Below, piece by piece: positions 6,650 to 57,836 of a DNA stretch of 60,088 nt. The notes beneath the pieces are model-generated. The model did no database searches, was not told the DNA's origin, and saw only the letters and a list, made by a program, of their open reading frames with translations. Numbering within the stretch: position 1 is the stretch's first letter; every line of letters begins with the position of its first letter. Position numbers and translations under genes: made by a program. Source of the DNA: an uncultured virus (IMG/VR IMGVR_UViG_3300027861_004722) (Duplodnaviria > Heunggongvirae > Uroviricota > Caudoviricetes); IMG/VR virus record IMGVR_UViG_3300027861_004722. The stretch is one strand, 5' to 3'.

Positions 6650-7141
6650 ATGGCATTACCAATGCTAGCCCTAGATCTGGCCACCAAGACTGGCTGGGCT
6701 ATGAAAGATAGAACAGGCGCTATAGCGTCTGGGATGCAAGAATTTGCACTTAAGCGTGGAGAAAGCAAAGGAATGCGATTTCTACGTTTTCGTAAATGGC
6801 TCAGAGAAATGCTCGCCCTTGGGGAGATAGGAACAAGTTTTTCCGAAGATGAGCCCGGGGTTATAGCTTTTGAGCAAGCACATCATAGAGGTGGGGCTGC
6901 TACTGAGTTATGTGTAGGACTAATGACAGATACCCTAGCCGAGGCCGCCCGAATAAGCGCGGAACACATGCCCATCCATACGGGACAGCTTAAAAAGTGG
7001 GCTACTGGCAAGGGCAATACTGGAAAAGCGGGTATGATGGCTCGGGCCCAAGAACTTTATCCAGGTATTGAACTCATCGATGACAATCATGCAGATGCTC
7101 TTCTTCTATTAAGCTATGCTTTAGAAGAAATTGGTGTCTAG
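6650..7141 (+). CDS. RuvC-like Holliday junction resolvase
   Basis: LALDLA, IAFEQ, KKWATGKGN.GK, DDNHADAL acidic catalytic set. Confidence 0.85.
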   Translation: MALPMLALDLATKTGWAMKDRTGAIASGMQEFALKRGESKGMRFLRFRKWLREMLALGEIGTSFSEDEPGVIAFEQAHHRGGAATELCVGLMTDTLAEAARISAEHMPIHTGQLKKWATGKGNTGKAGMMARAQELYPGIELIDDNHADALLLLSYALEEIGV

Positions 7142-7189
7142 TGTTTGATTATTCCCCGCACTTGCTTTATTCTAGAAATTGAGGTAATT

Positions 7190-7576
7190 ATGTCATTAAG
7201 AGATATGGCCCGTAGGGCACTAAAAAACGTCCGTCGAACTGTTACAGGAGAGATAGATGTACAAGAACTTCTCAATAAAAACCAAGTTAAGATGGTAAAA
7301 ACACGAGAATATGAAGCCGATGATCATGGGAACAAGATTGCATGGTCCTATAGATTCATTTTTGATAACCAAGGCCGAAAACAATCTTTTCTGCAGGCTA
7401 TTGGAGCTTACCCAAAGCAACAATGGGATGACTTTGTTTCTTGGAAAAACGATATAAGTAATTTAAATGGTGAGATTTGTGTTGAAGCCGCATGCTTAGT
7501 TCCCCCACAGGAAACAGGTCGAATGAGACACCAATTTGAACATTTTGTAACCAGAGAACTGGTATTGAAAGGATAA
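7190..7576 (+). CDS. hypothetical protein
   Basis: GAGG SD before ATG 7190 (MSLRDM). Confidence 0.65.
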   Translation: MSLRDMARRALKNVRRTVTGEIDVQELLNKNQVKMVKTREYEADDHGNKIAWSYRFIFDNQGRKQSFLQAIGAYPKQQWDDFVSWKNDISNLNGEICVEAACLVPPQETGRMRHQFEHFVTRELVLKG

Positions 7577-7578
7577 TC

Positions 7579-7908
7579 ATGGGACAAAGAACTATAGAGG
7601 TAGCTGTAAGCTCAGAACTAGCCCCCACCATCGCAGACACCCTTAAAACCGATTGTCTACGTATTGAGACTGTTAAAAAAATACAACTAGCCCCTCATTC
7701 AGATACACGAATCAATCTCACTGTGCATAACACATCTCATGTAGGGCGCATGGGCCAAATAATTGCTAATTTTGATGCTAGGGAAGCCCATGTAAAGATT
7801 CCCAATTCCCACGTTTATGTGGCTCCGGATGGGCAGACTGTAGTTTATGCTATTGTTAGCCCACTACTTAAGCATGGAAATACTAAGATTACTTTTGACG
7901 TTTTCTAA
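7579..7908 (+). CDS. hypothetical beta-rich protein
   Basis: AAGGA SD; in operon. Confidence 0.65.
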   Translation: MGQRTIEVAVSSELAPTIADTLKTDCLRIETVKKIQLAPHSDTRINLTVHNTSHVGRMGQIIANFDAREAHVKIPNSHVYVAPDGQTVVYAIVSPLLKHGNTKITFDVF

Positions 7909-7928
7909 TAAGACTACTAACTAGACTA

Positions 7929-7970
7929 AAAAATAGACTCACGAATCCTTTCGATCATGAGTCTATTTTT
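7929..7970. terminator. intrinsic terminator-like hairpin
   Basis: AAAAATAGACTCA...TGAGTCTATTTTT inverted repeat after operon end. Confidence 0.6.
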
Positions 7971-8098
7971 ATGAAACCGCCTTAGCAAGGCACTGAACTA
8001 CTACAACAATTAATTCCTTCTACTTTAGGGCTATTTTTAACTATTTTTTCCAATATTTGTAATTAAACTTTCTTTATTCTACAATGATATAGGAGAGT

Positions 8099-8485
8099 TT
8101 GATGACCTTGAAAGAAACTTTAGATCAAGTAACTAAAGTTATTAGAGCACTACAATATAAGGATCACCCTAAGGATGAACTAGTATCTTTATTGCAGAAT
8201 TTAATAGTTTTAGTAGGGCAAGTATTAGTCCAGCGAGATGACGCAACAGAAAAGCTAAGTCGTTATGACATGCAACTTTGGTTATCCCATATTATGGGGC
8301 AAGTCGAGTGCCCAGACTGCACTTGCCAATTTCCTATTGATTTCTTTGTAGGATCTAAAGGCATTGATGGTAAGCCGCTAACAGCAGCCACGCAAGACGA
8401 ACTGATAGAGCTTCTAGAATTTCCACCGATAACTCAAGAAGATATTAAGAATTCTCCTATCCCAGATTTCATGCCTGAATTATAG
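8099..8485 (+). CDS. hypothetical protein (CPDC motif)
   Basis: AGGAG SD; TACAAT -10 upstream. Confidence 0.65.
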   Translation: MMTLKETLDQVTKVIRALQYKDHPKDELVSLLQNLIVLVGQVLVQRDDATEKLSRYDMQLWLSHIMGQVECPDCTCQFPIDFFVGSKGIDGKPLTAATQDELIELLEFPPITQEDIKNSPIPDFMPEL

Positions 8486-8509
8486 GCAATCTTTAGGTAT
8501 AATCATTGC

Positions 8510-9061
8510 ATGGAGCCAGATTTCGTTACACGCCAACACCTAGACTCGCTAACCCCCTCTTCCGATCCTGATATGGCTGAGGTGCTGGGTAAGTATAAAT
8601 TTCCACCAGCAACGCGGCCCCCGAGACCCCCTAGGCCGATGGGCGGATATGGACAGCCCGCGCAGTTTAGTGCCCCTTCAAGCAATAATGATATGCTGCT
8701 GGGGAGTATGCTAGGGCAGCTACAGGCTAATCAAAACCAAAATCAGACCAAGAACAGCCCCTCTTCGGATGGGTTTCAGCTTTCAATCAATACAGAAATA
8801 CTCAGATGGCTACTTCTTATTGTTCTATTGGTTGTTTTAATTTGGCTAGTTTTACAGGTCCGACAAAATAAGAAGAATTCAGCTAAGTCCGAGTTACGTA
8901 ACAATCTTTCCAGAAAACCAGAATTTAGGAGATTTCGTTCCAGAAGCCGCTCTAAGAGAAAAAATCCCAAAGAACTACCTTTTGATGAGATATCCTGGCC
9001 GAGTTGGGGGCAGGAAGATGAAACAGAAGATGCTTGGGACGAGCCAGATGATGATTTTTAG
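8510..9061 (+). CDS. single-pass membrane protein; Pro/Gln-rich N-terminus, basic then acidic C-terminus
   Basis: TM WLLLIVLLVVLIWLVL; RSRSRSKRKNP; TATAAT 6 nt before ATG. Confidence 0.75.
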   Translation: MEPDFVTRQHLDSLTPSSDPDMAEVLGKYKFPPATRPPRPPRPMGGYGQPAQFSAPSSNNDMLLGSMLGQLQANQNQNQTKNSPSSDGFQLSINTEILRWLLLIVLLVVLIWLVLQVRQNKKNSAKSELRNNLSRKPEFRRFRSRSRSKRKNPKELPFDEISWPSWGQEDETEDAWDEPDDDF

Positions 9062-9471
9062 CGAAGTTTCTTTTTAACCAAAGCTACATCAAGCAGATTT
9101 ACAACCAATTTCCAGCCAAGACGTTGCAGCAACTTAACTACCCTAGGCTTAAAGACGTGAGCATAGAGCGCAGTTACCCTGTATTTTTCCCGCAACTCAT
9201 CTTCTAAGTAGGCTAAAAGTTTAGCCCCTATTTTTTTACTGCGATGCTCTTTAGCAACAGCTGTCTGGACACTAAAAGCTGTTCGGGTACCTGGTATTAT
9301 TAGGTAGCAGGTATATGCAATGACTTCCTTTTTCTCATCTTGAACTATGTATAGCCAACCCAGGGCCATTAACAAGCTGTAAAATGGGAGGGTATAGTTT
9401 AAAATATCTCCTTCTTTAGCTAATTCTACTACCCTTTGACAGTGTTTTGGGGTGGCCCGAGATACAAACAT
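9058..9471 (-). CDS. GNAT family acetyltransferase
   Basis: AVAKEHRSKKIGAKLL motif A, LGW; start reassigned to MFVSRA (TGnTATACT 6 nt upstream). Confidence 0.8.
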   Translation of the reverse strand: MFVSRATPKHCQRVVELAKEGDILNYTLPFYSLLMALGWLYIVQDEKKEVIAYTCYLIIPGTRTAFSVQTAVAKEHRSKKIGAKLLAYLEDELREKYRVTALYAHVFKPRVVKLLQRLGWKLVVNLLDVALVKKKLR

Positions 9472-9569
9472 AGTATAAGTATAGCAGAAATCCAAATAAA
9501 ATTTAAACTCTATTAAGGTCAATAGTAGCAACCTCACCAAGAGGTGTTAAAATTTCTTAGAGGGTTAAT

Positions 9570-12500
9570 ATGCTAAGCTTAGCGATCATTGTCAAAGACG
9601 AAGAAAAAAATATAACTAGACTTTTAGATTCAGTGCAAGGGCTTTACGATGAGCTAATCATTGTAGACACAGGGTCTACTGATCGAACTGTAGAGCTTGC
9701 ACATAGATACACCCCCCATGTACATCATTTTACCTGGGTTAACGATTTCTCTAAGGCGAGAAACTTCTCCTTTAGCAAATGCACCAATCCTTGGATTATG
9801 TGGCTCGATGCGGACGATGTGCTAAAAGCAGAAGACGTTCAAATTATTCGCAGCGAATTTCTAAAAAACCATATTAGATTAGATCTGGATTACATGCTAA
9901 TTAACTACCACTATTTGGTAGAGCCATCAACAATTCACGGAACGGCCAAGGCCACACAGCTCAGAGAGAGGATTATTCGCAGAGAAAAAGCTCGCTGGGT
10001 TGGTCGTTGCCATGAGCATATAGCTGTTGTTTGGGGTCGCACTCATGCTATTTCGGGGGCTGCTGTTTGGCACCTAAGAGACGAGGAAGACAGAGCAGCA
10101 GATGCCAATAGAAATATAGAACTAATGATTCTTGAGGCCCAGGATCGTCCAACCGATAGAAGTTTTTTCTACCTAGGAAACGAGTACGCTAACGTAGGGC
10201 GAACCGAAGAGGCTATTGTGTCCTACAAACGGGCTCTGGATATATCTACTCACATTAATACCAAATTTCAGGCCTGCTATAAAATCGCGCAAAGCCTTCA
10301 AGGACAGCTAAAAACCGATGAAGCCATAAAATGGTATATGAAAGCGCTATCACACCAAGTCGATTACCGCGAGCCCATTCTAGGGTTAGCCTCCATTTAC
10401 ATGGAAAGAAAAGACTTCACTAAAGCCGCTTTTTGGCTAGAAGCTGCATCTCAGGTAGATGAACCCAAACATCCAGAAATGGTCGTATTTAAGCCCAATT
10501 ACTCATCCGTGACGTATGATATGCTAGCCAAAGCTCGATTCGGGCTGAGCCAGTTTGATAAAGCAATTGAAGCCTCTGAAGAGCTTTACAGAATAACCCG
10601 CCAACCCAATATTCTTTCAGATATAGCCTCAAGCCGAGAATCTCTCCGCAATGCCTATAAGAGACCAGAGGGTGTGACAAAGCTAAATCTAGGCTGCGGG
10701 GATAAACCTATAGAAGGATTTATTAATGTTGATCTATTCGAGCAACCCGGAGTTGATGAAGTATTCAGCTTAGACGTAATACCTTATGCCGACTATAGCG
10801 TAGATGAGATTGTAAGTGTGCATTCTCTAGAGCATATACCACGCCCACGGGCCGAGGCCGCAATAAGAGAATGGGCCCGCGTTCTGAAGAAGGGTGGAAA
10901 GCTGTCTCTTAAGGTGCCAGACCTTGAAGAGTGTTGCAGGCTATTCGTTGAGAGGCCGGAGGAGCAGGAACCTTGGTATCAGCACACCATTTACGGGGTT
11001 CAAGATTTTCGAGATGCCCATGATGCACCTTTTAAAGATAAGATAAATTTTGGGCAGATACACTATACAGGATTTACAGAAAGGCGGCTGCGAAGACTAC
11101 TAACAGAAGCTGGTTTTATTATTGATGATATGCACAAATACGATGGGTTTCGCACACCCAGCCTATCAGTTGAAGCGCATTTACCTGCTATTCCAGAAAA
11201 CCAAAAGAAGAGAATTGCCTTCATAAATAACACACTCAATCCCAAGTATCTCAGTTATGGTGATCACTGGGAAGATGCCTTTCGAGCTACTGGACACGAT
11301 TTAGATGTATTCAAGTATGAGCAAGTCGGATCTTTACCAAGCGGTTATGATCTTTACTTTTTTATTGAAGCAAATGGTAGATACGATGTAGCTTCTATAC
11401 CTAATATCTCTCCCAAAGTTCTTTACGTCCAAGATGATCTACGACCAGGAGAGCTGGACTGCTTTGATGTTATAGCTACTCCAGATACAGAAAAATTGCA
11501 TAAATGGGAAGTTGAAGGAAGAACATGTATTTTTCTCACCAATGATTCCCATATAGATAAAGTTAATACACTGCTTTCTCTAAATCTAGCCTCGGCGCTA
11601 GTCCCAGAGCTAGTTCCAGAAGTAGACCATCTAGGTTTTAGTGATCTAATCCCTGTAATAGCGGGATCCAAGGTAGTAGAAATAAGATCACCAAAACCAG
11701 CAGTAAGTTCTATAGTAGACATTATAATTCCTAGCTATAAAAATGTAGAGTACCTCAAACTTACTATTTCATCTGTAAAAAGAAATAGCCCGGAAGCAAA
11801 TATAATTGTAGTCAATAGTGGGGACGATCCTGCTACACGAGCTTATCTGCGAAGCATTCACACCGAAATAGTTCTAATAGATTCTTTTGAGCGCTTAAGT
11901 TTTAGCCAAGCGGTGAACAAAGGACTTAGGTCTTCCACTAGAGATGTAGTAATACTAAACAATGACACTATTGTGGGTAAGAATTGGCTAGCCCCTCTAC
12001 AGAACAGCCCTTTCGATATAACAAATCCATTCAGTAATTGCGACAAAGGTTGGATACACAACCGTTCAATCCAATCCAACGGGGTTGAGCTAGAACCTAA
12101 TATGTTCTTAGGAAGCGTTGACCCAGACCAGATCATGGATCTTAGTAGCCCTTACGATGACAATGTCAGTCGTCACCAACCCAAACAAGCGTGGGTGGCT
12201 TTTTATGCTACTTATATCAAGCGCGAAGTCATTGACCAAACAGGTTACTTAGATGAAGAATTTATCAATGGGGGAGAAGACTATGATTTTTGTCGTCGTG
12301 CCGGGAAGCACGGGTTTACCTGCGGGCACACCTTCTCTAGCTTTGTATTCCATTATGGTGGAAAAACTAGAAAGCTTAGTGAGGATGAAAACTACCAGCA
12401 GCACCATGCAGAAGATAAGCTAAACAATGAATTTATGAAGCTGAAAGATAGAACCACAGTTGCTATCTATGCGGGCCAAGCATGGGAGCCCTGGACTATA

Positions 12501-13517
12501 GATTCTATCAACACTACAGGTATTGGTGGATCAGAGACTTGCGCTGCAATGCTAGCCAAAGGTTTTGCTGAGCGCGGCTATCGCTCTATTCTCTTTGGGG
12601 ATTGCGAAGGACAAGAAGGTTTAAAAGATGGTGTGGAGTATGTCCATCATACTAGATACAATGCCTGGAAAGACGTAAATCATATTGATTATATGATTAG
12701 TTCCAGAAAAATGTCCCCTCTGGGGCATAAAGTTTCTAACACCAAGAACTATGTTTGGTCCCATGATATTTTCATACCAGAATGCATGTATAACTACCCA
12801 CCACACGCAGATAAAGTAACCAAATTTATATGTCTATCTCCCTGGCATGTAGGATTTTTTCACGATCACCATAAAGTAAACACTTCTCAAATTCATATCC
12901 AAGGAAATGGCTTAGATGTTTCCAGGTACGATGCGCGAAAGACCGTTCAAAAAGATCCCCACAGGCTCATATACAGCTCTAGCCCGGACAGAGGGCTACT
13001 AACCCTTCTACAGATGTTTCCTGGATGGAAGAAAGAGTTTCCACAACTCAGTTTGCATATTTTCTACGGGTTTGATAACTGGAAAAAGGCTATACAACAG
13101 CGCAATAATCCAGAAGAAGTAAAACATCTACAAGGCATTGAACAGTTAATAGAACAACCGGGCGTTTACTATCACGGCAGGATCTCCCAAGAGAGGCTAG
13201 CCAAGGAACAGATGAAATCCAGTATCTGGGCTTATCCCACTACTTTTACCGAAACCTTTTGTATAACCTCAACGGAGTGTATGTTGGCTGGCGCTGTTCC
13301 CGTATGCACCACAGTCGCAGCACTTAAGACCACAGTACCCGATGGCTGCGGTGTAAAGGTAGATACACCTTGGGGCGTGTCCGATGCTGTTCTAGATCTA
13401 CTAAGACACCCAGAAAAACAACAACAGTACAGAATCAGGGGGGAGAAACATGTCTTGGAAAATTGTAATTGGAATAAAATTGTCCAAAACTGGGTTGATA
13501 TGTTTGAAACAACTTAA
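9570..13517 (+). CDS. multidomain glycosyltransferase: GT2 + TPR + SAM methyltransferase + GT2 + GT-B/GT4-like
   Basis: DTGSTD, WLDADD, HEH; TPR helices; LNLGCG, HSLEH; LNNDT, GGEDYD; YSSSPDRGL, ETFCI. Confidence 0.9.
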   Translation: MLSLAIIVKDEEKNITRLLDSVQGLYDELIIVDTGSTDRTVELAHRYTPHVHHFTWVNDFSKARNFSFSKCTNPWIMWLDADDVLKAEDVQIIRSEFLKNHIRLDLDYMLINYHYLVEPSTIHGTAKATQLRERIIRREKARWVGRCHEHIAVVWGRTHAISGAAVWHLRDEEDRAADANRNIELMILEAQDRPTDRSFFYLGNEYANVGRTEEAIVSYKRALDISTHINTKFQACYKIAQSLQGQLKTDEAIKWYMKALSHQVDYREPILGLASIYMERKDFTKAAFWLEAASQVDEPKHPEMVVFKPNYSSVTYDMLAKARFGLSQFDKAIEASEELYRITRQPNILSDIASSRESLRNAYKRPEGVTKLNLGCGDKPIEGFINVDLFEQPGVDEVFSLDVIPYADYSVDEIVSVHSLEHIPRPRAEAAIREWARVLKKGGKLSLKVPDLEECCRLFVERPEEQEPWYQHTIYGVQDFRDAHDAPFKDKINFGQIHYTGFTERRLRRLLTEAGFIIDDMHKYDGFRTPSLSVEAHLPAIPENQKKRIAFINNTLNPKYLSYGDHWEDAFRATGHDLDVFKYEQVGSLPSGYDLYFFIEANGRYDVASIPNISPKVLYVQDDLRPGELDCFDVIATPDTEKLHKWEVEGRTCIFLTNDSHIDKVNTLLSLNLASALVPELVPEVDHLGFSDLIPVIAGSKVVEIRSPKPAVSSIVDIIIPSYKNVEYLKLTISSVKRNSPEANIIVVNSGDDPATRAYLRSIHTEIVLIDSFERLSFSQAVNKGLRSSTRDVVILNNDTIVGKNWLAPLQNSPFDITNPFSNCDKGWIHNRSIQSNGVELEPNMFLGSVDPDQIMDLSSPYDDNVSRHQPKQAWVAFYATYIKREVIDQTGYLDEEFINGGEDYDFCRRAGKHGFTCGHTFSSFVFHYGGKTRKLSEDENYQQHHAEDKLNNEFMKLKDRTTVAIYAGQAWEPWTIDSINTTGIGGSETCAAMLAKGFAERGYRSILFGDCEGQEGLKDGVEYVHHTRYNAWKDVNHIDYMISSRKMSPLGHKVSNTKNYVWSHDIFIPECMYNYPPHADKVTKFICLSPWHVGFFHDHHKVNTSQIHIQGNGLDVSRYDARKTVQKDPHRLIYSSSPDRGLLTLLQMFPGWKKEFPQLSLHIFYGFDNWKKAIQQRNNPEEVKHLQGIEQLIEQPGVYYHGRISQERLAKEQMKSSIWAYPTTFTETFCITSTECMLAGAVPVCTTVAALKTTVPDGCGVKVDTPWGVSDAVLDLLRHPEKQQQYRIRGEKHVLENCNWNKIVQNWVDMFETT

Positions 13518-46355: not shown

Positions 46356-46958
46356 ATGCATAGACCAGGTTATTTAAATGGCTTTGAAGGTATTACAGCA
46401 CGTAATGCCTCAACAAACAGAACACTGGGCCATTATTCTAGCGGCTTAACTTTAGGTAGTTTTGGTAAAGGGTCTATGGCACCACCGCCCGAACCGCCAG
46501 GCATAGCGCCTGGTGCTGCCCCTCCCCAATTCGTTGGTGGAAAATGGCAGTGCTCTGGAACCCAACCAACATCAGCCGCAGATGGGTTTTACCAGTGCTG
46601 TCCCATAACCGGATGGACTAAGGTAGGCTTCGAAGATAGAGTACCTTGCGGAAAAAATAACGGGATGCTCACCTGTGGCCCCCTACCAGAAGGCGCTGCT
46701 GTTGAAGATGCAATATGCTGCGAAAATATCACGGAATGGGCTCCCCGTGGAGAGCCAGGAAGTGACCCTTGCGAACAAGCAGGTATGGCACACTCTCAGG
46801 CTACAGGACGGGCAGTGCCCGGAATGACCTCAACCATGCTCACAGAAGATATAGTTATTGATCAAGGCCCTCTGCTAAGCCCTGTGCTGTTAGTGGGCGG
46901 TGGGCTGGTCGTTGCTATAATTTTTGGTGTTACTATCTTCTTAAAACTTAAGAGTTAG
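46356..46958 (+). CDS. Cys/Pro-rich LG-motif membrane protein
   Basis: RPGYLNGFEG; CC repeats; C-terminal TM. Confidence 0.75.
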   Translation: MHRPGYLNGFEGITARNASTNRTLGHYSSGLTLGSFGKGSMAPPPEPPGIAPGAAPPQFVGGKWQCSGTQPTSAADGFYQCCPITGWTKVGFEDRVPCGKNNGMLTCGPLPEGAAVEDAICCENITEWAPRGEPGSDPCEQAGMAHSQATGRAVPGMTSTMLTEDIVIDQGPLLSPVLLVGGGLVVAIIFGVTIFLKLKS

Positions 46959-47406
46959 CAACTACTCTAGCAAATAGAGGATTAGAAAGAGCACTTTTAC
47001 TACGATTTTTCCTGATGTGATTTACTATTTTCTTACCAGGCTCATTAGATAGTTTTCTAATGGCTAATCCAGAAATAAGCCCTGATCGATTCCAGCCAGC
47101 CCAACACGTACTAAGAACATTATCTCCGCGAAGTATATGTTCTATAGCAAGTTCCGCAGCCTGCTTAGCCTTTTTGATAGTTTTTTTATACTCTCTAGGA
47201 GTAAATAAGATAGTATCTCTCAAAGGGACATACAGAACATCCGCAGCTTCAAATCCGCCACCGGTATCCTCTATATAATTAGGTTGGTAGTTTTTTGCAG
47301 CAAGTATAAGCAACGAAATGTTATTCTCTCGAAGAATTTCCGGTATCTCTCTAGCCCCCGCCTGATACAGTTCCCCACCATTGGTATGTCTATATATGAG
47401 ACTCAT
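46948..47406 (-). CDS. dual-specificity / tyrosine phosphatase family protein
   Basis: CWAGWNRSG (CX5R), PLRD, LSNPLF. Confidence 0.88.
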   Translation of the reverse strand: MSLIYRHTNGGELYQAGAREIPEILRENNISLLILAAKNYQPNYIEDTGGGFEAADVLYVPLRDTILFTPREYKKTIKKAKQAAELAIEHILRGDNVLSTCWAGWNRSGLISGLAIRKLSNEPGKKIVNHIRKNRSKSALSNPLFARVVANS

Positions 47407-52997: not shown

Positions 52998-53474
52998 ATG
53001 GAAACCGAACTCTGGTATCATGGAACACCTAATCCTGACTCAATTCTGGATAAGGGGTTCAATATAAACCATCAACGAACCAGTGACCCCGGAGATTTCG
53101 GCTGGGGAACTTACGCCAGCAGATCCCTCTCTAGATCCCGGTGCTATGGAACTGTATTGGGTGTTTTAGTGGATACAAGCTCTTGCGCTTATATATCTAA
53201 CCCCTACTTCCTTAAAGGCATAAATCAGGTCCTTCCCTCAACATTTGAAGAGCACTTATTTTATGATATAGTTTTTGATACTAGCGATCCCGCCCTCTAT
53301 CCAACAATGCTAACTATAAAGGGACCTCGCGTATCACGAGAAGCCATATGCAAAGAAATCAGGGACAAGTTTTTAGAAAATGGCTATACTGGTATAGCTA
53401 CAGATTATAATATCGGGGAACTAGTGATCTTTGATCACGAAATAATTAAAGACGTATTCCTGCTAGACCGATAG
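52998..53474 (+). CDS. ADP-ribosyltransferase-like protein
   Basis: WYHGT, FGWGTYAS, GYTGI, ELVIFD. Confidence 0.72.
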   Translation: METELWYHGTPNPDSILDKGFNINHQRTSDPGDFGWGTYASRSLSRSRCYGTVLGVLVDTSSCAYISNPYFLKGINQVLPSTFEEHLFYDIVFDTSDPALYPTMLTIKGPRVSREAICKEIRDKFLENGYTGIATDYNIGELVIFDHEIIKDVFLLDR

Positions 53475-53486
53475 AGGCCCTAACAA

Positions 53487-54089
53487 CTACTCTTTCTTTT
53501 TACGCTTCTTTTTCTTCTCTTCTTCTTCGTGCGCTTTCTTACTAACACGCTTCAGAGCCTTGGTTTTTGGGGCATCTTCAGGATTCTTCCTAGGACGACC
53601 GCGAGGACGCTTGGGCTTATCTATCTTAGGATGCTTTCTAGGACGACCGCGAGGACGCTTGGGCTTATCTATCTTAGGATGCTTTCTAGGACGACCGCGA
53701 GGACGCTTGGGCTTATCTATCTTAGGATGCTTTCTAGGACGACCGCGAGGACGCTTGGCTTTTTCCACTCTTACCTTTTTGGGCCTGCCCCTTGTTGCCT
53801 TTTTCTTAGGAAGGCGCTTAAGGGGTTCCTTTGCAGCAAGGAGAACCTTCTTGGCTTCCGCCAGCCTCTCGGCCATATCTTTAGATGGACGACCACGCCC
53901 CCTAGGAGCGAACCATAATCTTTTAGCAGAACGAACTGTTAGCTCTTTAGTGCGTCGTTTTGGCAGCTTTTTTGTGGTTTTCCTAGTCTTTGGAGACTTC
54001 TTAGCATTTGCTACCTTCTTAGTTTTTGGGTTTTTTGCAGCGGCAGCAGGGTTTCGCCTTAAGTTCTTTTTAGGGTTTTTGTTTTTCAT
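53487..54089 (-). CDS. AT-hook histone-like protein
   Basis: Six GRP AT-hooks (PRGRPRK x4); extremely Lys/Arg-rich; CAGGA SD. Confidence 0.85.
   Translation of the reverse strand: MKNKNPKKNLRRNPAAAAKNPKTKKVANAKKSPKTRKTTKKLPKRRTKELTVRSAKRLWFAPRGRGRPSKDMAERLAEAKKVLLAAKEPLKRLPKKKATRGRPKKVRVEKAKRPRGRPRKHPKIDKPKRPRGRPRKHPKIDKPKRPRGRPRKHPKIDKPKRPRGRPRKNPEDAPKTKALKRVSKKAHEEEEKKKKRKKKE
53590..53758. repeat. perfect 48-nt tandem repeat, about 3.5 copies (codes KRPRGRPRKHPKIDKP on minus strand)
   Basis: CTAGGACGACCGCGAGGACGCTTGGGCTTATCTATCTTAGGATGCTTT at 53590, 53638, 53686; partial at 53734. Confidence 0.95.
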
Positions 54090-54597: not shown

Positions 54598-54625
54598 TTG
54601 ACTCTACTAAAAACATTGATATAAT
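54598..54625 (+). promoter_or_regulatory. sigma70-type promoter
   Basis: TTGACT-16-TATAAT with extended TG. Confidence 0.75.
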
Positions 54626-54651: not shown

Positions 54652-55326
54652 ATGCAAGTTGAAAGAGTAATTCAGACCTTTAAAGATGGGGTCCTGACCT
54701 CCAAAAAAGTAGTGAAGGTACCTCCTTCTACCAATCCCGAAACTGGGTGGGATGCAAGCCCGCCTAAACATCACAAAGCCTTAGATTTGGGAGACTTTAG
54801 CGCTGTTGCTATACAACAAGCGGCTAATGCCCAAGAACTCTTGATGGCTGAGGTCAGGAAACTTAGGAGGAATTTAATTAAGTCTGAGCGAGAAGCAGGA
54901 GCTAGGCTAAAAGAGCGGGATGCTCTAAAAAAGGCTCTGCAAAGACGACTAGACCAAGTAGAAGGCTTACAGATGAGAAACGATGACCTGTCCTGCCAGG
55001 TAGCTGCTCATGAAGATGACAATCTTCATCTAGAAGAGGAGCTAACTAAATACAAGAATCGAGTCACCTTTCTAAGCACACAACGAGCCACGCCACCTGA
55101 TTCTGACCGGCAACGTGCTCGCACAGGTCCTAGGCAACCAACGCAGCCCGCTTCCGATCAGCAACGTGCTCGCACAGGTCCCAGGCAACCAGCCCAGCCT
55201 GAAAAAACACAAGCAGCAATAACAAAAAGCAGTGCCGAAAAAGCTGCTGAACTTTTGGGCGAGCCCGCACAAGAACAGGTATCCAAAGAAGTTCGCTCCA
55301 TCGCAGCTAGCCCAGTAAAGAAGTAG
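54652..55326 (+). CDS. coiled-coil protein with duplicated QRARTGPRQP
   Basis: Long heptads; 30-nt direct repeat at 55111 and 55162. Confidence 0.72.
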   Translation: MQVERVIQTFKDGVLTSKKVVKVPPSTNPETGWDASPPKHHKALDLGDFSAVAIQQAANAQELLMAEVRKLRRNLIKSEREAGARLKERDALKKALQRRLDQVEGLQMRNDDLSCQVAAHEDDNLHLEEELTKYKNRVTFLSTQRATPPDSDRQRARTGPRQPTQPASDQQRARTGPRQPAQPEKTQAAITKSSAEKAAELLGEPAQEQVSKEVRSIAASPVKK

Positions 55327-55330
55327 GATA

Positions 55331-56692
55331 ATGTCAACACTTAGAGTAAGAAGATGCGGTATTTGCAAAGAGTCTGGCCATAATGCAAGAACTTGTTCTC
55401 AGGCATCTACTCTAGGATCTATACCGCCCCTAGGATCTACTGCCACTCCCCCAGAACTAGAATATGAAGTTGTGGATGGCAAAGCCTTGCTGGGGGCCTT
55501 CAGGTTGGGCTCTAGGCACGTATATGTCAGTATGCTGCCGTCTCACGCCGAATCCGTAATGGTTAAGTACAACCCTAATATCCAGGTATCTTGTGTTATA
55601 CCTCCACAAAAATTTAATGTAAGCTATGCTACTAGACGACAAACCAAATCGCATCTGGATATAACGACGCCCACACTAATTATGAGTTGCGGTTACGGAG
55701 AGGTTCCTACATCCCGAAGTCATAAAAGTGTAAACCTGGGATATACTTTATGGGCGTATGATACGGAAAGAAAAAATAAAATCTGGGCTAAACCTTACGT
55801 TTTCGCCAATGTCTATACGGGTTCCGGGCAGGTGTGCTTCGGAGGTTTAAGGCCCAGCAGCCTGAGACAAGCATACAATCAGTATTGGTCTAGTAGCTTT
55901 AATAATGACCTTTTCCGGGAACCGCATAATTGCGGGGAAAAATCACACAGCTTTAATTATTACCACAATGGCTGCAGATGCGACCCAAACCATAAACAAC
56001 ACACCTGCGAATGCTCCAGAGTGACTTTTCACAAGCATCGAGGATGCGGGTGCAGGACCGTGGCTGCTTCTAAGAAATGTCGTGGTGGGTGCGAAAGACG
56101 CGGTGCCGATGGCTGTCTTTGCTGCCAGGCCATTCGCAGAGTTACTGCCGCAGCACTAGAGCTAGACCCTAATATGAAGATTAGAAAGAAAAATAAGCTA
56201 GCAGTTGTTGAAGGAACTCCTTATCCGGATTGTGGGTGTGGCTTTAGACATAAACAGGCATGTGGGTGTTCCACAAATAGATGCACCTGCCTTTGCTTAT
56301 GCGCTTGCTGCCAGAAAACCTGCGTACATGAACCATGCGTATGTCAATGCTGCAAAGATACTTGTAGGTGCAGATGCGCGTGCACTGTTGAGAAACAGTT
56401 TTCTCATCATATTAAAAACTATCATGAAAGCAGGCTACTTAAACAAAAGTGGACCGACCAAACTCCGCTTTTCTGCGGAACTAAATTTTGGGCCTCTTCA
56501 AAAAGCACAACAGGAATCCTCATCTCCAATGAGAAAACCCTGCTATCCCAGATTCCAAGAAAATTCTGGAGAAAAGATACTCACGGAAGCCCTATGGTAA
56601 TTGCCACAGCGCTGTTAAAAGACGACACCTGGTACTTCGAATCAGGCGGCTTCACTTTCTCCTTGCCACAAAGTAGCGTAATTGCAAACTAG
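55331..56692 (+). CDS. Zn-knuckle + prokaryotic E2(D)-like domain + metallothionein-like Cys-rich insert
   Basis: CGICKESGHNARTC; PYVFANVYTGSGQVCFG..YWSSSFNNDL; 31 Cys in about 155 aa. Confidence 0.7.
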   Translation: MSTLRVRRCGICKESGHNARTCSQASTLGSIPPLGSTATPPELEYEVVDGKALLGAFRLGSRHVYVSMLPSHAESVMVKYNPNIQVSCVIPPQKFNVSYATRRQTKSHLDITTPTLIMSCGYGEVPTSRSHKSVNLGYTLWAYDTERKNKIWAKPYVFANVYTGSGQVCFGGLRPSSLRQAYNQYWSSSFNNDLFREPHNCGEKSHSFNYYHNGCRCDPNHKQHTCECSRVTFHKHRGCGCRTVAASKKCRGGCERRGADGCLCCQAIRRVTAAALELDPNMKIRKKNKLAVVEGTPYPDCGCGFRHKQACGCSTNRCTCLCLCACCQKTCVHEPCVCQCCKDTCRCRCACTVEKQFSHHIKNYHESRLLKQKWTDQTPLFCGTKFWASSKSTTGILISNEKTLLSQIPRKFWRKDTHGSPMVIATALLKDDTWYFESGGFTFSLPQSSVIAN

Positions 56693-56715: not shown

Positions 56716-57450
56716 ATGGATTTCAATATTTTAAGTAGAGCCCATTTTCAGGATTCTGTTTTGACCTTTCCTATCAACACAGGCTCCGGGGCATCCACGG
56801 CGTATTCCCATGATCTTAACGGTGGATCCTTTTGCTTGAAAAGAGCAGAGTGGAGATATAGCGTTCCGGGAGGCCAACTAGATGATTACGGGTGGCCCAA
56901 GGTCCCAATGCAGATATCCATTAACGGGGCGATGCAAGACCAGACCGCTAGCCCAGTAGTCATATCTCCACCGGCTCTTCTTAAAAATAAAGTAGAAGTA
57001 TCCATTAGTAACCCTTCTTCTCTGCAGGTTACCATCCATTTAACTATTACTGGAACCTTGGTTACCCCCATAGGAGATAGTGCATTGACCAGTAAAGAGA
57101 TGTTAGGCTATTCTCTTCTTGATGATTCACAGAAAGGAATGCTTGCTCTGGAGGAAGCCGCAACAGATAGGATGAGAGAGCATCTCAAGCAACTAGGGTT
57201 TGACTCACAGACGCAAGAGCAGATAATGCTAGGGCAATCTAACACTAGCAACATCAACCCTTCGGCACTACCCTCCGCAGTAATAAAGGCATTAGACACA
57301 GAATCTAATAACACCAAAAAACCAGAGGAGCTTAAATCTCTTCTAGTCGGAGATCTCGTTCAGTTTAAATTAACGAACAGTAGCGAGATTACTCTTGATG
57401 AAATACAAGCATTATCAGACTATCTCTTGAGCAAAGAGTGGAAAAAATAA
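56716..57450 (+). CDS. hypothetical protein, paralog of 31794-32651
   Basis: DFNILSRAHF, KEMLGY..LD, KEWKK. Confidence 0.75.
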   Translation: MDFNILSRAHFQDSVLTFPINTGSGASTAYSHDLNGGSFCLKRAEWRYSVPGGQLDDYGWPKVPMQISINGAMQDQTASPVVISPPALLKNKVEVSISNPSSLQVTIHLTITGTLVTPIGDSALTSKEMLGYSLLDDSQKGMLALEEAATDRMREHLKQLGFDSQTQEQIMLGQSNTSNINPSALPSAVIKALDTESNNTKKPEELKSLLVGDLVQFKLTNSSEITLDEIQALSDYLLSKEWKK

Positions 57451-57836
57451 TGAAAAGAAAGACCAGAGGAAGACGGGCTGCTATTAAAGCAGCCCGTCTT
57501 TCGAAATTTTATGCGCATCGCGTCGGGGCAGTGTTATTCAATGGGCCCCGGCTAATATCTCTTGGATACAATGTTCATAAATCTCATCCCGAGAATACGT
57601 GTTTCACGCGTCATGCAGAATTCAATTCATTAAAACGAACAAAGACCAGAACAAACAATCTAGTAATGTATGTAGCTAGATTAACAAGAACCGATAAGAT
57701 CAGCCTAGCCCGTCCCTGCCCAGCTTGCCAAATAAAGATAAGAGAAGCCGGTATCCGGGAAGTATACTACACCACACACTCAGGCGAGCTAGAAAAACTT
57801 ACTTTTGATGCTGAATTGGTAGGTTCTAATGTCTGA
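57450..57836 (+). CDS. cytidine/dCMP deaminase-family Zn protein
   Basis: RVGAVL, GYN, HAE, RPCPAC; TAATG overlap. Confidence 0.88.
   Translation: MKRKTRGRRAAIKAARLSKFYAHRVGAVLFNGPRLISLGYNVHKSHPENTCFTRHAEFNSLKRTKTRTNNLVMYVARLTRTDKISLARPCPACQIKIREAGIREVYYTTHSGELEKLTFDAELVGSNV

Follow-up and report, generated by a model that had tools for sequence, protein, structure and literature searches.

Why would a phage-like element carry the gene of a protein related to ubiquitin-conjugating enzymes (E2s) with none of the usual partner genes beside it, and with 31 Cys residues gathered in one stretch of its sequence? The question is posed by an open reading frame (ORF) in DNA from an uncultured virus assigned to the Caudoviricetes (IMG/VR record IMGVR_UViG_3300027861_004722), of which the whole stretch of 60,088 nucleotides was analysed and is referred to here as the window. 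Biochemical proof that ubiquitin-like conjugation operates in bacteria and phages is recent and comes from the Bil, cyclic-oligonucleotide-based antiphage signalling system (CBASS) Cap2 and Bub systems. Bacterial pathways formed by an activating enzyme (E1), an E2 and a ubiquitin-like protein (Ubl) act in antiphage immunity, according to two reports (PMC10557695, PMC11601596). The PRTRC/Prok-E2_D proteins are a branch that is common in phages and for which our literature search found no mechanistic study: no paper naming Prok-E2_D or PF14460 was retrieved, and the titles listed for PRTRC concerned annotation or transcriptome contexts only. The same search found no paper on an E2 with a Cys-rich or zinc-binding insertion nor, judging by title among the matches listed, on a phage E2 in huge phages.

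Relationship of the core to Prok-E2_D

Profile comparisons indicate that the core of the protein is a divergent relative of Prok-E2_D (PF14460, which equals TIGR03737 or 'PRTRC system protein B') and descends from that group, whose members are the E2-like proteins of cassettes with ThiF, JAB and Ubl genes in mobile elements and phages. The ORF begins with ATG, 4 nt past the end of the upstream ORF, and its anatomy is the one described in the initial annotation: an N-terminal knuckle (aa 9-22), a core motif (aa 154-194) that ends in YWSSSFNNDL, a block of about 155 aa with 31 Cys (aa 199-352) and a globular C-terminus (101 aa). The features of the ORF are the following:

55331..56692 (+): whole E2-like ORF, 453 aa plus stop, with CCHC knuckle, E2-like core, Cys-rich insert and C-terminal domain
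55355..55396 (+): CCHC zinc knuckle CX2CX4HX4C, aa 9-22 (CGICKESGHNARTC), identified by its pattern, which occurs once in the protein
55397-55465 (+): variable linker after the knuckle, aa 23-45
55466..55924 (+): N-terminal beta extension and first part of the ubiquitin-conjugating (UBC)-like domain, aa 46-198, from the Pfam match, the AlphaFold2 (AF2) model and the structural alignment of the relative P0045
55790..55912 (+): active-site motif, aa 154-194 (KPYVFANVYTGSGQVCFGG...LRQAYNQYWSSSFNNDL), which aligns column for column with canonical Prok-E2_D
55808-55810 (+): Asn160
55835-55837 (+): putative catalytic Cys169
55925..56386 (+): Cys/His-rich insert, aa 199-352 (154 aa, 31 Cys, 9 His)
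55925-56125 (+): cluster 1 of the insert, aa 199-265, 12 Cys and 7 His
56126-56230 (+): Cys-free helical spacer of 35 aa within the insert, aa 266-300
56231-56383 (+): cluster 2 of the insert, aa 301-351, 19 Cys and 2 His
56387..56689 (+): resuming long helix of the E2-like domain (aa 353-371) and family-specific alpha/beta C-terminal domain (aa ~372-453)

A word-seeded search of 5.8 billion proteins for close homologues returned 22 matches, namely a 279-aa fragment identical to the query and 21 full-length proteins with 45-56 % identity. Since none of these 21 homologues has a frame break, the comparison indicates that the gene is real and under selection. An exhaustive profile search of 1.84 billion representatives added remote relatives (230 proteins at E <= 1e-3, 114 of them at E <= 1e-10). 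Many of these are 260-330 aa long and are aligned over two separate regions (about 45-197 and about 353-450); they have the scaffold but not the Cys-rich block. A superfamily alignment of 109 rows was built from 88 of the 150 profile matches listed, the window protein and 20 further close homologues; a second alignment (A1, 22 rows) covers the close family. Relatives of the window clade were not found in IMG/VR, in 50,697 GenBank phages (tblastn) or in GTDB species genomes, and for the insert-less group GTDB genomes gave none and IMG/VR only the canonical locus L006 described below; the IMG/VR and GTDB scans were pattern-seeded, and distant relatives may escape them. PHROGs, NCBIfam and PADLOC gave no match to the window protein.

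The kinship with Prok-E2_D, which had been put forward from the active-site signature, is borne out by several comparisons. PF14460 matches the window protein with 24.3 bits (E 3e-5) over aa 89-198, corresponding to profile positions 36-134 of 171, and 21 of the 22 rows of A1 match it at E <= 0.01. Of the 150 remote relatives listed, 129 were scanned after short fragments and members of the window's own cluster had been set aside; 63 of them matched at E <= 1e-3 and 28 reached the 25-bit cut-off, the best being P0045 with 39.5 bits. The match runs to profile position 167-169 in insert-less members and ends at 134 in the window protein, exactly where the insert starts. Relatives also match the NCBIfam model PRTRC_B (P0099 at 4e-8). 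In hhalign comparisons with the canonical E2 of L006, the insert-less group scored a probability of 97.7 % (E 1.6e-12) and the window's group 96.1 % (E 3.2e-9). The Asn, Gly and Cys of the active-site motif and the stretch QAYNxFWxSxFNxDL are aligned with the canonical member, LPNIHPNGAICHG...IKQAYNLFWESAFNKDL in the latter standing opposite FANV(Y/W)xxGx(I/V)C(F/W)G...LRQAYNxYWxSxFNxDL.

L006 served as the positive control of the search for partner genes, since JAB and ThiF were found there beside the E2_D gene. On this 29-kb IMG/VR contig, positions 6777-9729 encode a Prok-E2_D protein (81.5 bits), then Prok-JAB and then ThiF, named PRTRC protein B, PRTRC protein A and PRTRC ThiF by NCBIfam (the latter with 147.4 bits for a cut-off of 144.75). 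The contig is of phage type, with RecT, a PD-(D/E)XK nuclease, VRR-NUC, a methylase and the large terminase beside the cassette. A 272-aa gene upstream of its E2 has no family match and could hold the Ubl. A protein identical to the L006 E2 (P0174) is recorded on a contig of 382,790 bp.

The window protein thus has in common with Prok-E2_D the pattern x-x-N-[IV]-x3-G-x-[IV]-C-x-G ... [IL][KR]xAYNx[FY]WxSxFNxDL, an active-site loop that comes after a beta-meander, and the invariant Cys; both families occur in phage DNA. It differs in having C-F/W-G in place of C-H-G, in the 154-aa insert with 31 Cys and the CCHC knuckle, and in the lack of JAB, ThiF or Ubl neighbours; its family also shows an added C-terminal domain of ~80 aa, the resumed helix (aa 353-371) and an N-terminal extension of beta strands. 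Among the features that define Prok-E2_D, a UBC-like fold (on the relative P0045) and an active-site Cys in the loop past the beta-meander are present, whereas a score above the curated threshold, the His after the Cys, the operon context and the single-domain size are not. The initial assignment to family D is therefore best narrowed to one of relationship, given the missing His and the extra C-terminal domain.

Active site and predicted fold

The only invariant column in the 109 sequences is the Cys of 'xCFG' (C169 in the window protein), and the Asn, two Gly and Pro of the motif, plus the Trp and Phe of the following helix, are conserved in at least 90 % of the rows. Asn160 lies nine residues ahead of Cys169 in the window protein, and the distance is eight residues in most relatives. 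Classical E2s have an HPN...C motif, with the Asn eight residues ahead of the Cys, and the arrangement of Asn and Cys in the window family mirrors it. The tripeptide itself reads F-A-N in the window protein, with the Asn kept and the His absent; with respect to E2s of eukaryotic type, the His of HPN is replaced by Phe or Leu.

The AF2 model of the window protein has a mean predicted local distance difference test (pLDDT) value of 70.8 and is good in aa 46-155 and 352-453, with values of 65-95 over aa 41-160 and of 91-97 per 10-residue block from aa 371 on, so that the C-terminal 101 aa are predicted with confidence to form a globular domain. Comparison of folds was done mainly with the insert-less relative P0045, whose model, obtained from the 109-row alignment, has a pLDDT of 95.9 and a predicted template modelling (TM) score of 0.92. 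With an aligner independent of Foldseek, run over 48,161 chains, 14 chains reached Z >= 5, and all of them were E2s, E2 fusions or an E2 variant. The top 26 rows were all of the E2 or ubiquitin E2 variant (UEV) fold (Z 4.5-6.0, root-mean-square deviation 3.2-5.3 Å, 93-136 aligned residues, model residues about 12-189). When the top 1000 chains from Foldseek were re-examined, 27 of them had Z >= 5 and the 45 best rows were again all E2/UEV. Secondary-structure elements follow the same order in the models of the window protein and P0045 on both sides of the insert. A core without a UBC fold would have refuted the E2 reading. The structure scores alone are only suggestive; joined with the independent sequence evidence, they lead to a predicted UBC fold for the core, and the reading is not refuted.

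The predicted scaffold is shared, at Z 4.5-6.0, with E2/UBC proteins of eukaryotic type (UbcH5, UbcH10, Ubc9, Ubc12, Pex4p and the viral I215L of African swine fever virus). It differs from them in that identity in the structural alignments is only 7-19 % and in that the P0045 model has additional beta strands where they have the N-terminal helix; UQ_con (Pfam) is absent from the window protein at E <= 10. No PDB sequence matched the 109-sequence profile at E <= 10. A search of BFVD retrieved two uncharacterised tailed-phage proteins (E 1.9e-4, TM 0.34-0.48), which add no function.

As for the remainder of the protein, the alignments indicate that the C-terminal alpha/beta domain of ~80 aa belongs to the whole subfamily and the 154-aa Cys/His block to the window clade only. 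Searches of ESM Atlas with the C-terminal domain yielded feature scores of 0.82-0.84 (Peptidase_C48/ElaD-like clusters) and TM values of 0.39-0.49 (C39-like models), all of them below threshold. The possibility that this domain is a papain-like protease, raised by its FCGTKFW stretch, was rejected, as Cys382 is not conserved across the superfamily and neither is any His.

The cysteine-rich insert

Cys makes up 8.4 % of the residues of the E2-like ORF, compared with 1.27 % across the other 79 non-overlapping ORFs of the window, a difference far beyond chance. Most of these residues fall in the insert, in which 30 of the 31 Cys and six His are invariant in A1; the remaining one, C215, alternates with His, a ligand-for-ligand swap. 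The element CxCxCC occurs at aa 322 and 336 and in no other ORF of the window. The insert separates the last long helix of the E2-like domain from the helix that comes after the active-site loop. Its sizes were compared by counting Cys at that one site, right after FNxxL, in the 109 proteins. More than half of these (59) have 0-2 Cys in 6-48 aa that are often acidic; there are 8-10 Cys in 11 proteins (48-69 aa), 12-19 in five, 22 in another five (104-112 aa) and 29-32 in the other 29 (141-194 aa). All the Cys-bearing inserts end in C-x-C-x-CC-x3-C-x-C-x-C-x-C, placed 7-13 residues (usually 10) before the resuming helix. In its commonest minimal form the insert consists of this terminal unit and an upstream H-x3-C-x4/5-H-x4-H, which brings it to 9 Cys and 3 His over a length of about 50 aa. 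Larger inserts gain tandem CxC(xC)C-x3-CxC units, and the version in the window has two of them in cluster 2 and a separate Cys/His cluster 1. Two relatives of 405-409 aa (P0060 and P0062) show a second Cys-rich insertion (CxCxxC ... CxCxxC) in the beta-sheet part of the E2-like domain, as well as a 22-Cys insert at the main site.

The history of the insert was followed on a maximum-likelihood tree of the core, built quickly from 246 columns after removal of those of the insert, with support by the Shimodaira-Hasegawa-like approximate likelihood ratio test (SH-aLRT) and a midpoint root that serves the drawing only. The 25-row clade of the window protein is sister (SH-aLRT 98) to a 30-row clade in which a single member has an insert and all the core motifs are kept, and both nest among lineages with inserts of intermediate size. 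The five size classes require 14 changes on the tree, for a minimum of 4, which indicates that the insert was expanded repeatedly and probably lost repeatedly too. Because an almost entirely insert-less sister clade retains every core motif, the insert is, as far as the tree goes, an accessory to the scaffold and not its core.

The description of this region as metallothionein-like holds for its density of Cys and its CxC and CC runs, which it shares with metallothioneins and with polynuclear Zn-Cys domains (pre-SET Zn3Cys9, CXC). Its placement is position-conserved and its sizes are graded across a wider family: it is a modular insertion in a loop of the E2-like domain, not a loose metallothionein-like tail. 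Metallothioneins are small stand-alone proteins recognised by a family model; the insert is internal to an enzyme domain, is rich in conserved His, has invariant positions and its own CxCxCC-x3-CxC repeat, and no Pfam family, metallothionein models included, matches it at E <= 10. ESM Atlas gave no usable feature match for it either, and structural TM values there were 0.37 or lower. The minimal insert of 9 Cys and 3 His is reminiscent of a cluster of the Zn3Cys9 type. Taken together, the ligand pattern, its invariance and the repeat unit suggest a rigid polynuclear metal-thiolate domain, the metal being probably zinc.

The N-terminal knuckle is less constant and is kept in 13 of the 22 members in A1. 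Its CX2CX4HX4C pattern is found in no other of the 80 non-overlapping ORFs of the window, and its residues (aa 9-22) have the C-x2-C-x4-H-x4-C spacing of zf-CCHC (PF00098). The Pfam scan did not report PF00098 itself, a short model, for the window protein; profile positions 5-38 do retrieve P0114, P0164 and P0167, which Pfam calls zf-CCHC arrays.

Genomic neighbourhood

The surroundings of the gene in the window include these features:

54598-54625: promoter-like site ahead of the 224-aa ORF, 11/12 matches
54652..55326 (+): upstream ORF of 224 aa, coiled coil, ending 4 nt before the E2-like start and probably co-transcribed with it
56716..57450 (+): downstream ORF of 244 aa with no known family, the sole constant immediate neighbour of the E2-like gene
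57468..57502 (+): G+C-rich hairpin of 15 bp with a T-rich tail, candidate terminator of the 224-aa / E2-like / 244-aa unit

The 15 kb around the E2-like gene are collinear in three relatives, with protein identities of 33-74 %. A gene of 227-244 aa adjoins the E2-like gene downstream in 4/4 loci (33-44 % identity), and its window copy has no Pfam, PHROG, NCBIfam or PADLOC match. The N-terminal part of the upstream 224-aa coiled-coil ORF is conserved in loci L002 and L004. In L002 (9216-9983), L004 (9112-10005) and L005 (9169-9978) a gene of 256-298 aa without clear family, absent from the window, stands directly upstream of the E2-like gene; the L005 copy has a sub-threshold Tudor_5 match (E 4e-4). 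Two genes upstream of the E2-like gene in the window, a very basic 200-aa protein (53487-54089, -) contains four tandem AT-hook repeats of the PKRPRGRPRKHPKIDK type, has counterparts with 58-74 % identity in L002, L004 and L005 and might be a nucleoid or DNA-coating protein. Promoter-like sites (11/12 matches) precede both upstream coiled-coil ORFs and are no commoner than in shuffled sequence, and the five hairpin/T-tail sites of the region do not exceed the number in shuffles (mean 6.4). The hairpin at 57468-57502 falls inside the first 22 codons of a dCMP-deaminase ORF (57438-57836, +) called from GTG 57438, whose true start may be downstream, the homologue in L002 being 13 aa shorter.

The gene content of the window is of phage type (DnaN, helicase, RuvC-like protein, thymidine kinase, PhoH, HNH, FEN, dCMP deaminase) and extends to chaperone and translation functions (GroEL/ES, two full DnaJ and a J-domain protein, GrpE, IF3, peptide deformylase). 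SmpB, ClpS and a UMP-kinase-like gene follow in the right flank of L001, just beyond the window. No tRNA and no structural hallmark gene (capsid, portal, terminase) were found in the 60 kb, and a phage holin is present in two related loci. From this gene content the element is likely viral, even though the window has no structural gene. A 453-aa member of the query's 90 % cluster, P0025, is found on contigs of up to 599,739 bp, and relatives lie on contigs of 711,776 bp for L002, 859,269 bp for L004 and 938,049 bp. If these are phages, some of them would rival or exceed the largest known phage genomes. Near-identical DNA recurs in marine or seawater metagenomes, with a word share >= 0.5 in at least ten runs, three of which may be the source; no RNA run was listed among the sequencing runs carrying matching DNA. 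Elsewhere in the window, a multidomain protein of 1315 aa (9570-13517, +) combines a GT2 glycosyltransferase, TPR repeats, a methyltransferase domain and a second glycosyltransferase, and two ORFs have weak matches of eukaryotic flavour, one to a fragment of a PARP catalytic domain (52998-53471, +; E 7.8e-4) and one to a dual-specificity phosphatase (46948-47406, -), the latter conserved in L002, L004 and L005.

Proposed mechanism and alternative explanations

The explanation that we favour, and whose chances we consider evenly balanced, is that the protein is enzymatically active as a thioester-carrying E2, contains an accessory module for several metal ions and relies on partners encoded elsewhere. 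Thioester carriage is inferred from the invariant Cys, the conserved Asn, the UBC fold predicted for the core and the kinship with the E2 found in E1/JAB cassettes. Cys169 would bear an acyl group as a thioester, most likely the C-terminus of a Ubl, and would then hand it over to a target. The insert, beside the active site, may act as a built-in recognition or partner-docking module in the form of a polynuclear metal-thiolate structure, probably with zinc, and the optional, tethered CCHC knuckle at the N-terminus may add affinity for nucleic acids. The E1 and the tag, which are not encoded within about 67 kb, would be provided from elsewhere in a very large genome or by the host.

Several results weigh against this proposal. 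The conjugation cascade is incomplete as far as it is visible, because searches for ThiF/E1, JAB and Ubl families were negative in the window (none in 71 ORFs of at least 100 aa and none in 17 ORFs of 45-99 aa) and in four related loci (L001 right flank, L002, L004 and L005; none in 108 ORFs), in agreement with the initial annotation, which had reported none adjacent. Its wording of an orphan viral enzyme fits this absence of partners within about 67 kb and the phage-type genes, and fits less well with contigs of 0.6-0.9 Mb in the relatives and with a window devoid of structural genes. The score with PF14460 stays 0.7 bits under the gathering score (24.3 for 25), and there is no NCBIfam match at E <= 1, hence no TIGR03737 (PRTRC_B), and no PADLOC match at E <= 1 for the window protein. 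At the active site, the Cys is followed by Phe or Trp in the window protein, P0045, P0099 and P0130, and by His in the four canonical proteins P0174-P0177; no His is present between C169 and F190 in the window protein. Prok-E2_D presumably corresponds to the PRTRC operons classified as type 6d. For operon type 6d, a His C-terminal to the Cys is given as 'absolutely conserved' in the corresponding table row of Iyer et al. (2006; PMC1779556). In structural terms, the AF2 model of the window protein is poor in the active-site loop (aa 160-194, pLDDT < 50) and in the insert, and it found no fold match (best Foldseek E against the PDB 6.5e-3, with rotavirus VP8*; best VIA Z 3.0), the E2 Pex4p appearing at Z 2.5 in the wide VIA search; these noise-only results are likely due to the unmodelled insert and active-site loop. 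For P0045, the Z values are modest (maximum 6.0, none >= 8), in a range that may reflect a mere common arrangement, and Foldseek alone gave nothing in the PDB at E <= 1e-3.

The absence of partners also invites the idea of a counter-defence decoy, which would intercept a ubiquitin-like defence of the host (Bil, CBASS Cap2 or PRTRC-like) by taking or trapping the activated tag from the host E1, with the Cys module docking the host enzyme. BilB (Bil/ISG15-like), the E2 domain of Cap2 (CBASS) and the Bub E2 are members of one superfamily with the window protein and share with it a general scheme in which E1, E2 and tag take part in the conflict between phage and bacterium, as described in the two reports (PMC10557695, PMC11601596). 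These E2s are always operonic or fused with their own E1, whereas the window protein is phage-borne and outside any bacterial defence island. A decoy would be in line with the lack of a cognate E1, JAB or Ubl within about 67 kb, with the phage-like nature of the element, with the action of bacterial E1-E2-Ubl pathways against phage that the same texts report (PMC10557695, PMC11601596) and with the evolutionary lability of the insert, whose 14 state changes on the tree are as expected of a conflict interface. We nevertheless think it improbable: the gene sits in a collinear block among housekeeping-type neighbours and is kept across elements at 33-74 % protein identity, which resembles a core function more than an arms-race accessory, and similarity to the PADLOC models of BilB or Cap2 was absent both in the window protein (E <= 1) and in P0045, P0130 and P0099 (E <= 0.01). 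It also seems unlikely that the UBC-like domain is a non-conjugating scaffold with a structural or binding role, in which the metal-thiolate block would be the key element for metal storage or buffering, redox or Fe-S chemistry, or association with the nucleoid or nucleic acids. The composition of the insert (20 % Cys, with metallothionein-like CxC and CC runs), the CCHC knuckle, the neighbouring AT-hook protein, coiled-coil proteins, dCMP deaminase and MutY/Nth-like protein, and the IscA-like Fe-S assembly genes in the window and its flank are compatible with such roles. Yet the sole invariant residue of the superfamily is the E2-type Cys, outside the insert; 59 of the 109 proteins keep the scaffold with 0-2 Cys at the insert site, which implies that the metal block is not the core function of the family, and conserved His ligands with fixed spacing indicate a structural cluster and not a buffering peptide.

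A different way to account for the lack of an E1 is that the Cys/Asn site has an unconventional chemistry that needs no ThiF-type E1, the protein being a self-contained transferase or ligase that uses another acyl donor, or a Bub-like oxyester/thioester variant in which the C-terminal domain or the insert replaces E1 or E3. The change of the canonical C-H-G to C-F/W-G and a C-terminal domain that is present in all members and missing from canonical Prok-E2_D could be read in this sense, and diverged bacterial pathways with altered chemistry do exist, according to one report (PMC11601596). This explanation is speculative and lacks a positive signal: no nucleotide-binding or adenylation motif or family appears anywhere in the protein (Pfam, E <= 10), nor does the C-terminal domain hold an invariant residue of catalytic type across the superfamily, and we regard it as very unlikely. 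The favoured reading also admits a bolder version, on which we look with considerable doubt. In a marine megaphage-like lineage, with relatives on contigs of 0.6-0.9 Mb, the protein might be a self-sufficient 'E2 plus built-in E3', in which a new, tandemly expandable CxCxCC-x3-CxC metal-cluster fold beside the active site would select the targets and an E1-type enzyme of the host would do the charging, as part of a phage-encoded protein-tagging system that rewires or hijacks the bacterial ubiquitin-like machinery. From the presence of the CCHC knuckle and of an AT-hook protein nearby, the targets could then be proteins bound to nucleic acids.

Significance

This family shows an E2-like scaffold outside the E1/JAB/Ubl operon, placed now in the conserved backbone of very large marine phage-like elements. 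The insert is a candidate for a new polynuclear metal-binding repeat, and the natural series of 0, ~9, ~17, 22 and ~31 Cys in a single loop adjacent to the active site provides ready-made variants with which the effect of such a module on an E2 could be followed. An active protein would help to find out which targets large phages tag and for what purpose, and a decoy would represent a new class of anti-defence protein.

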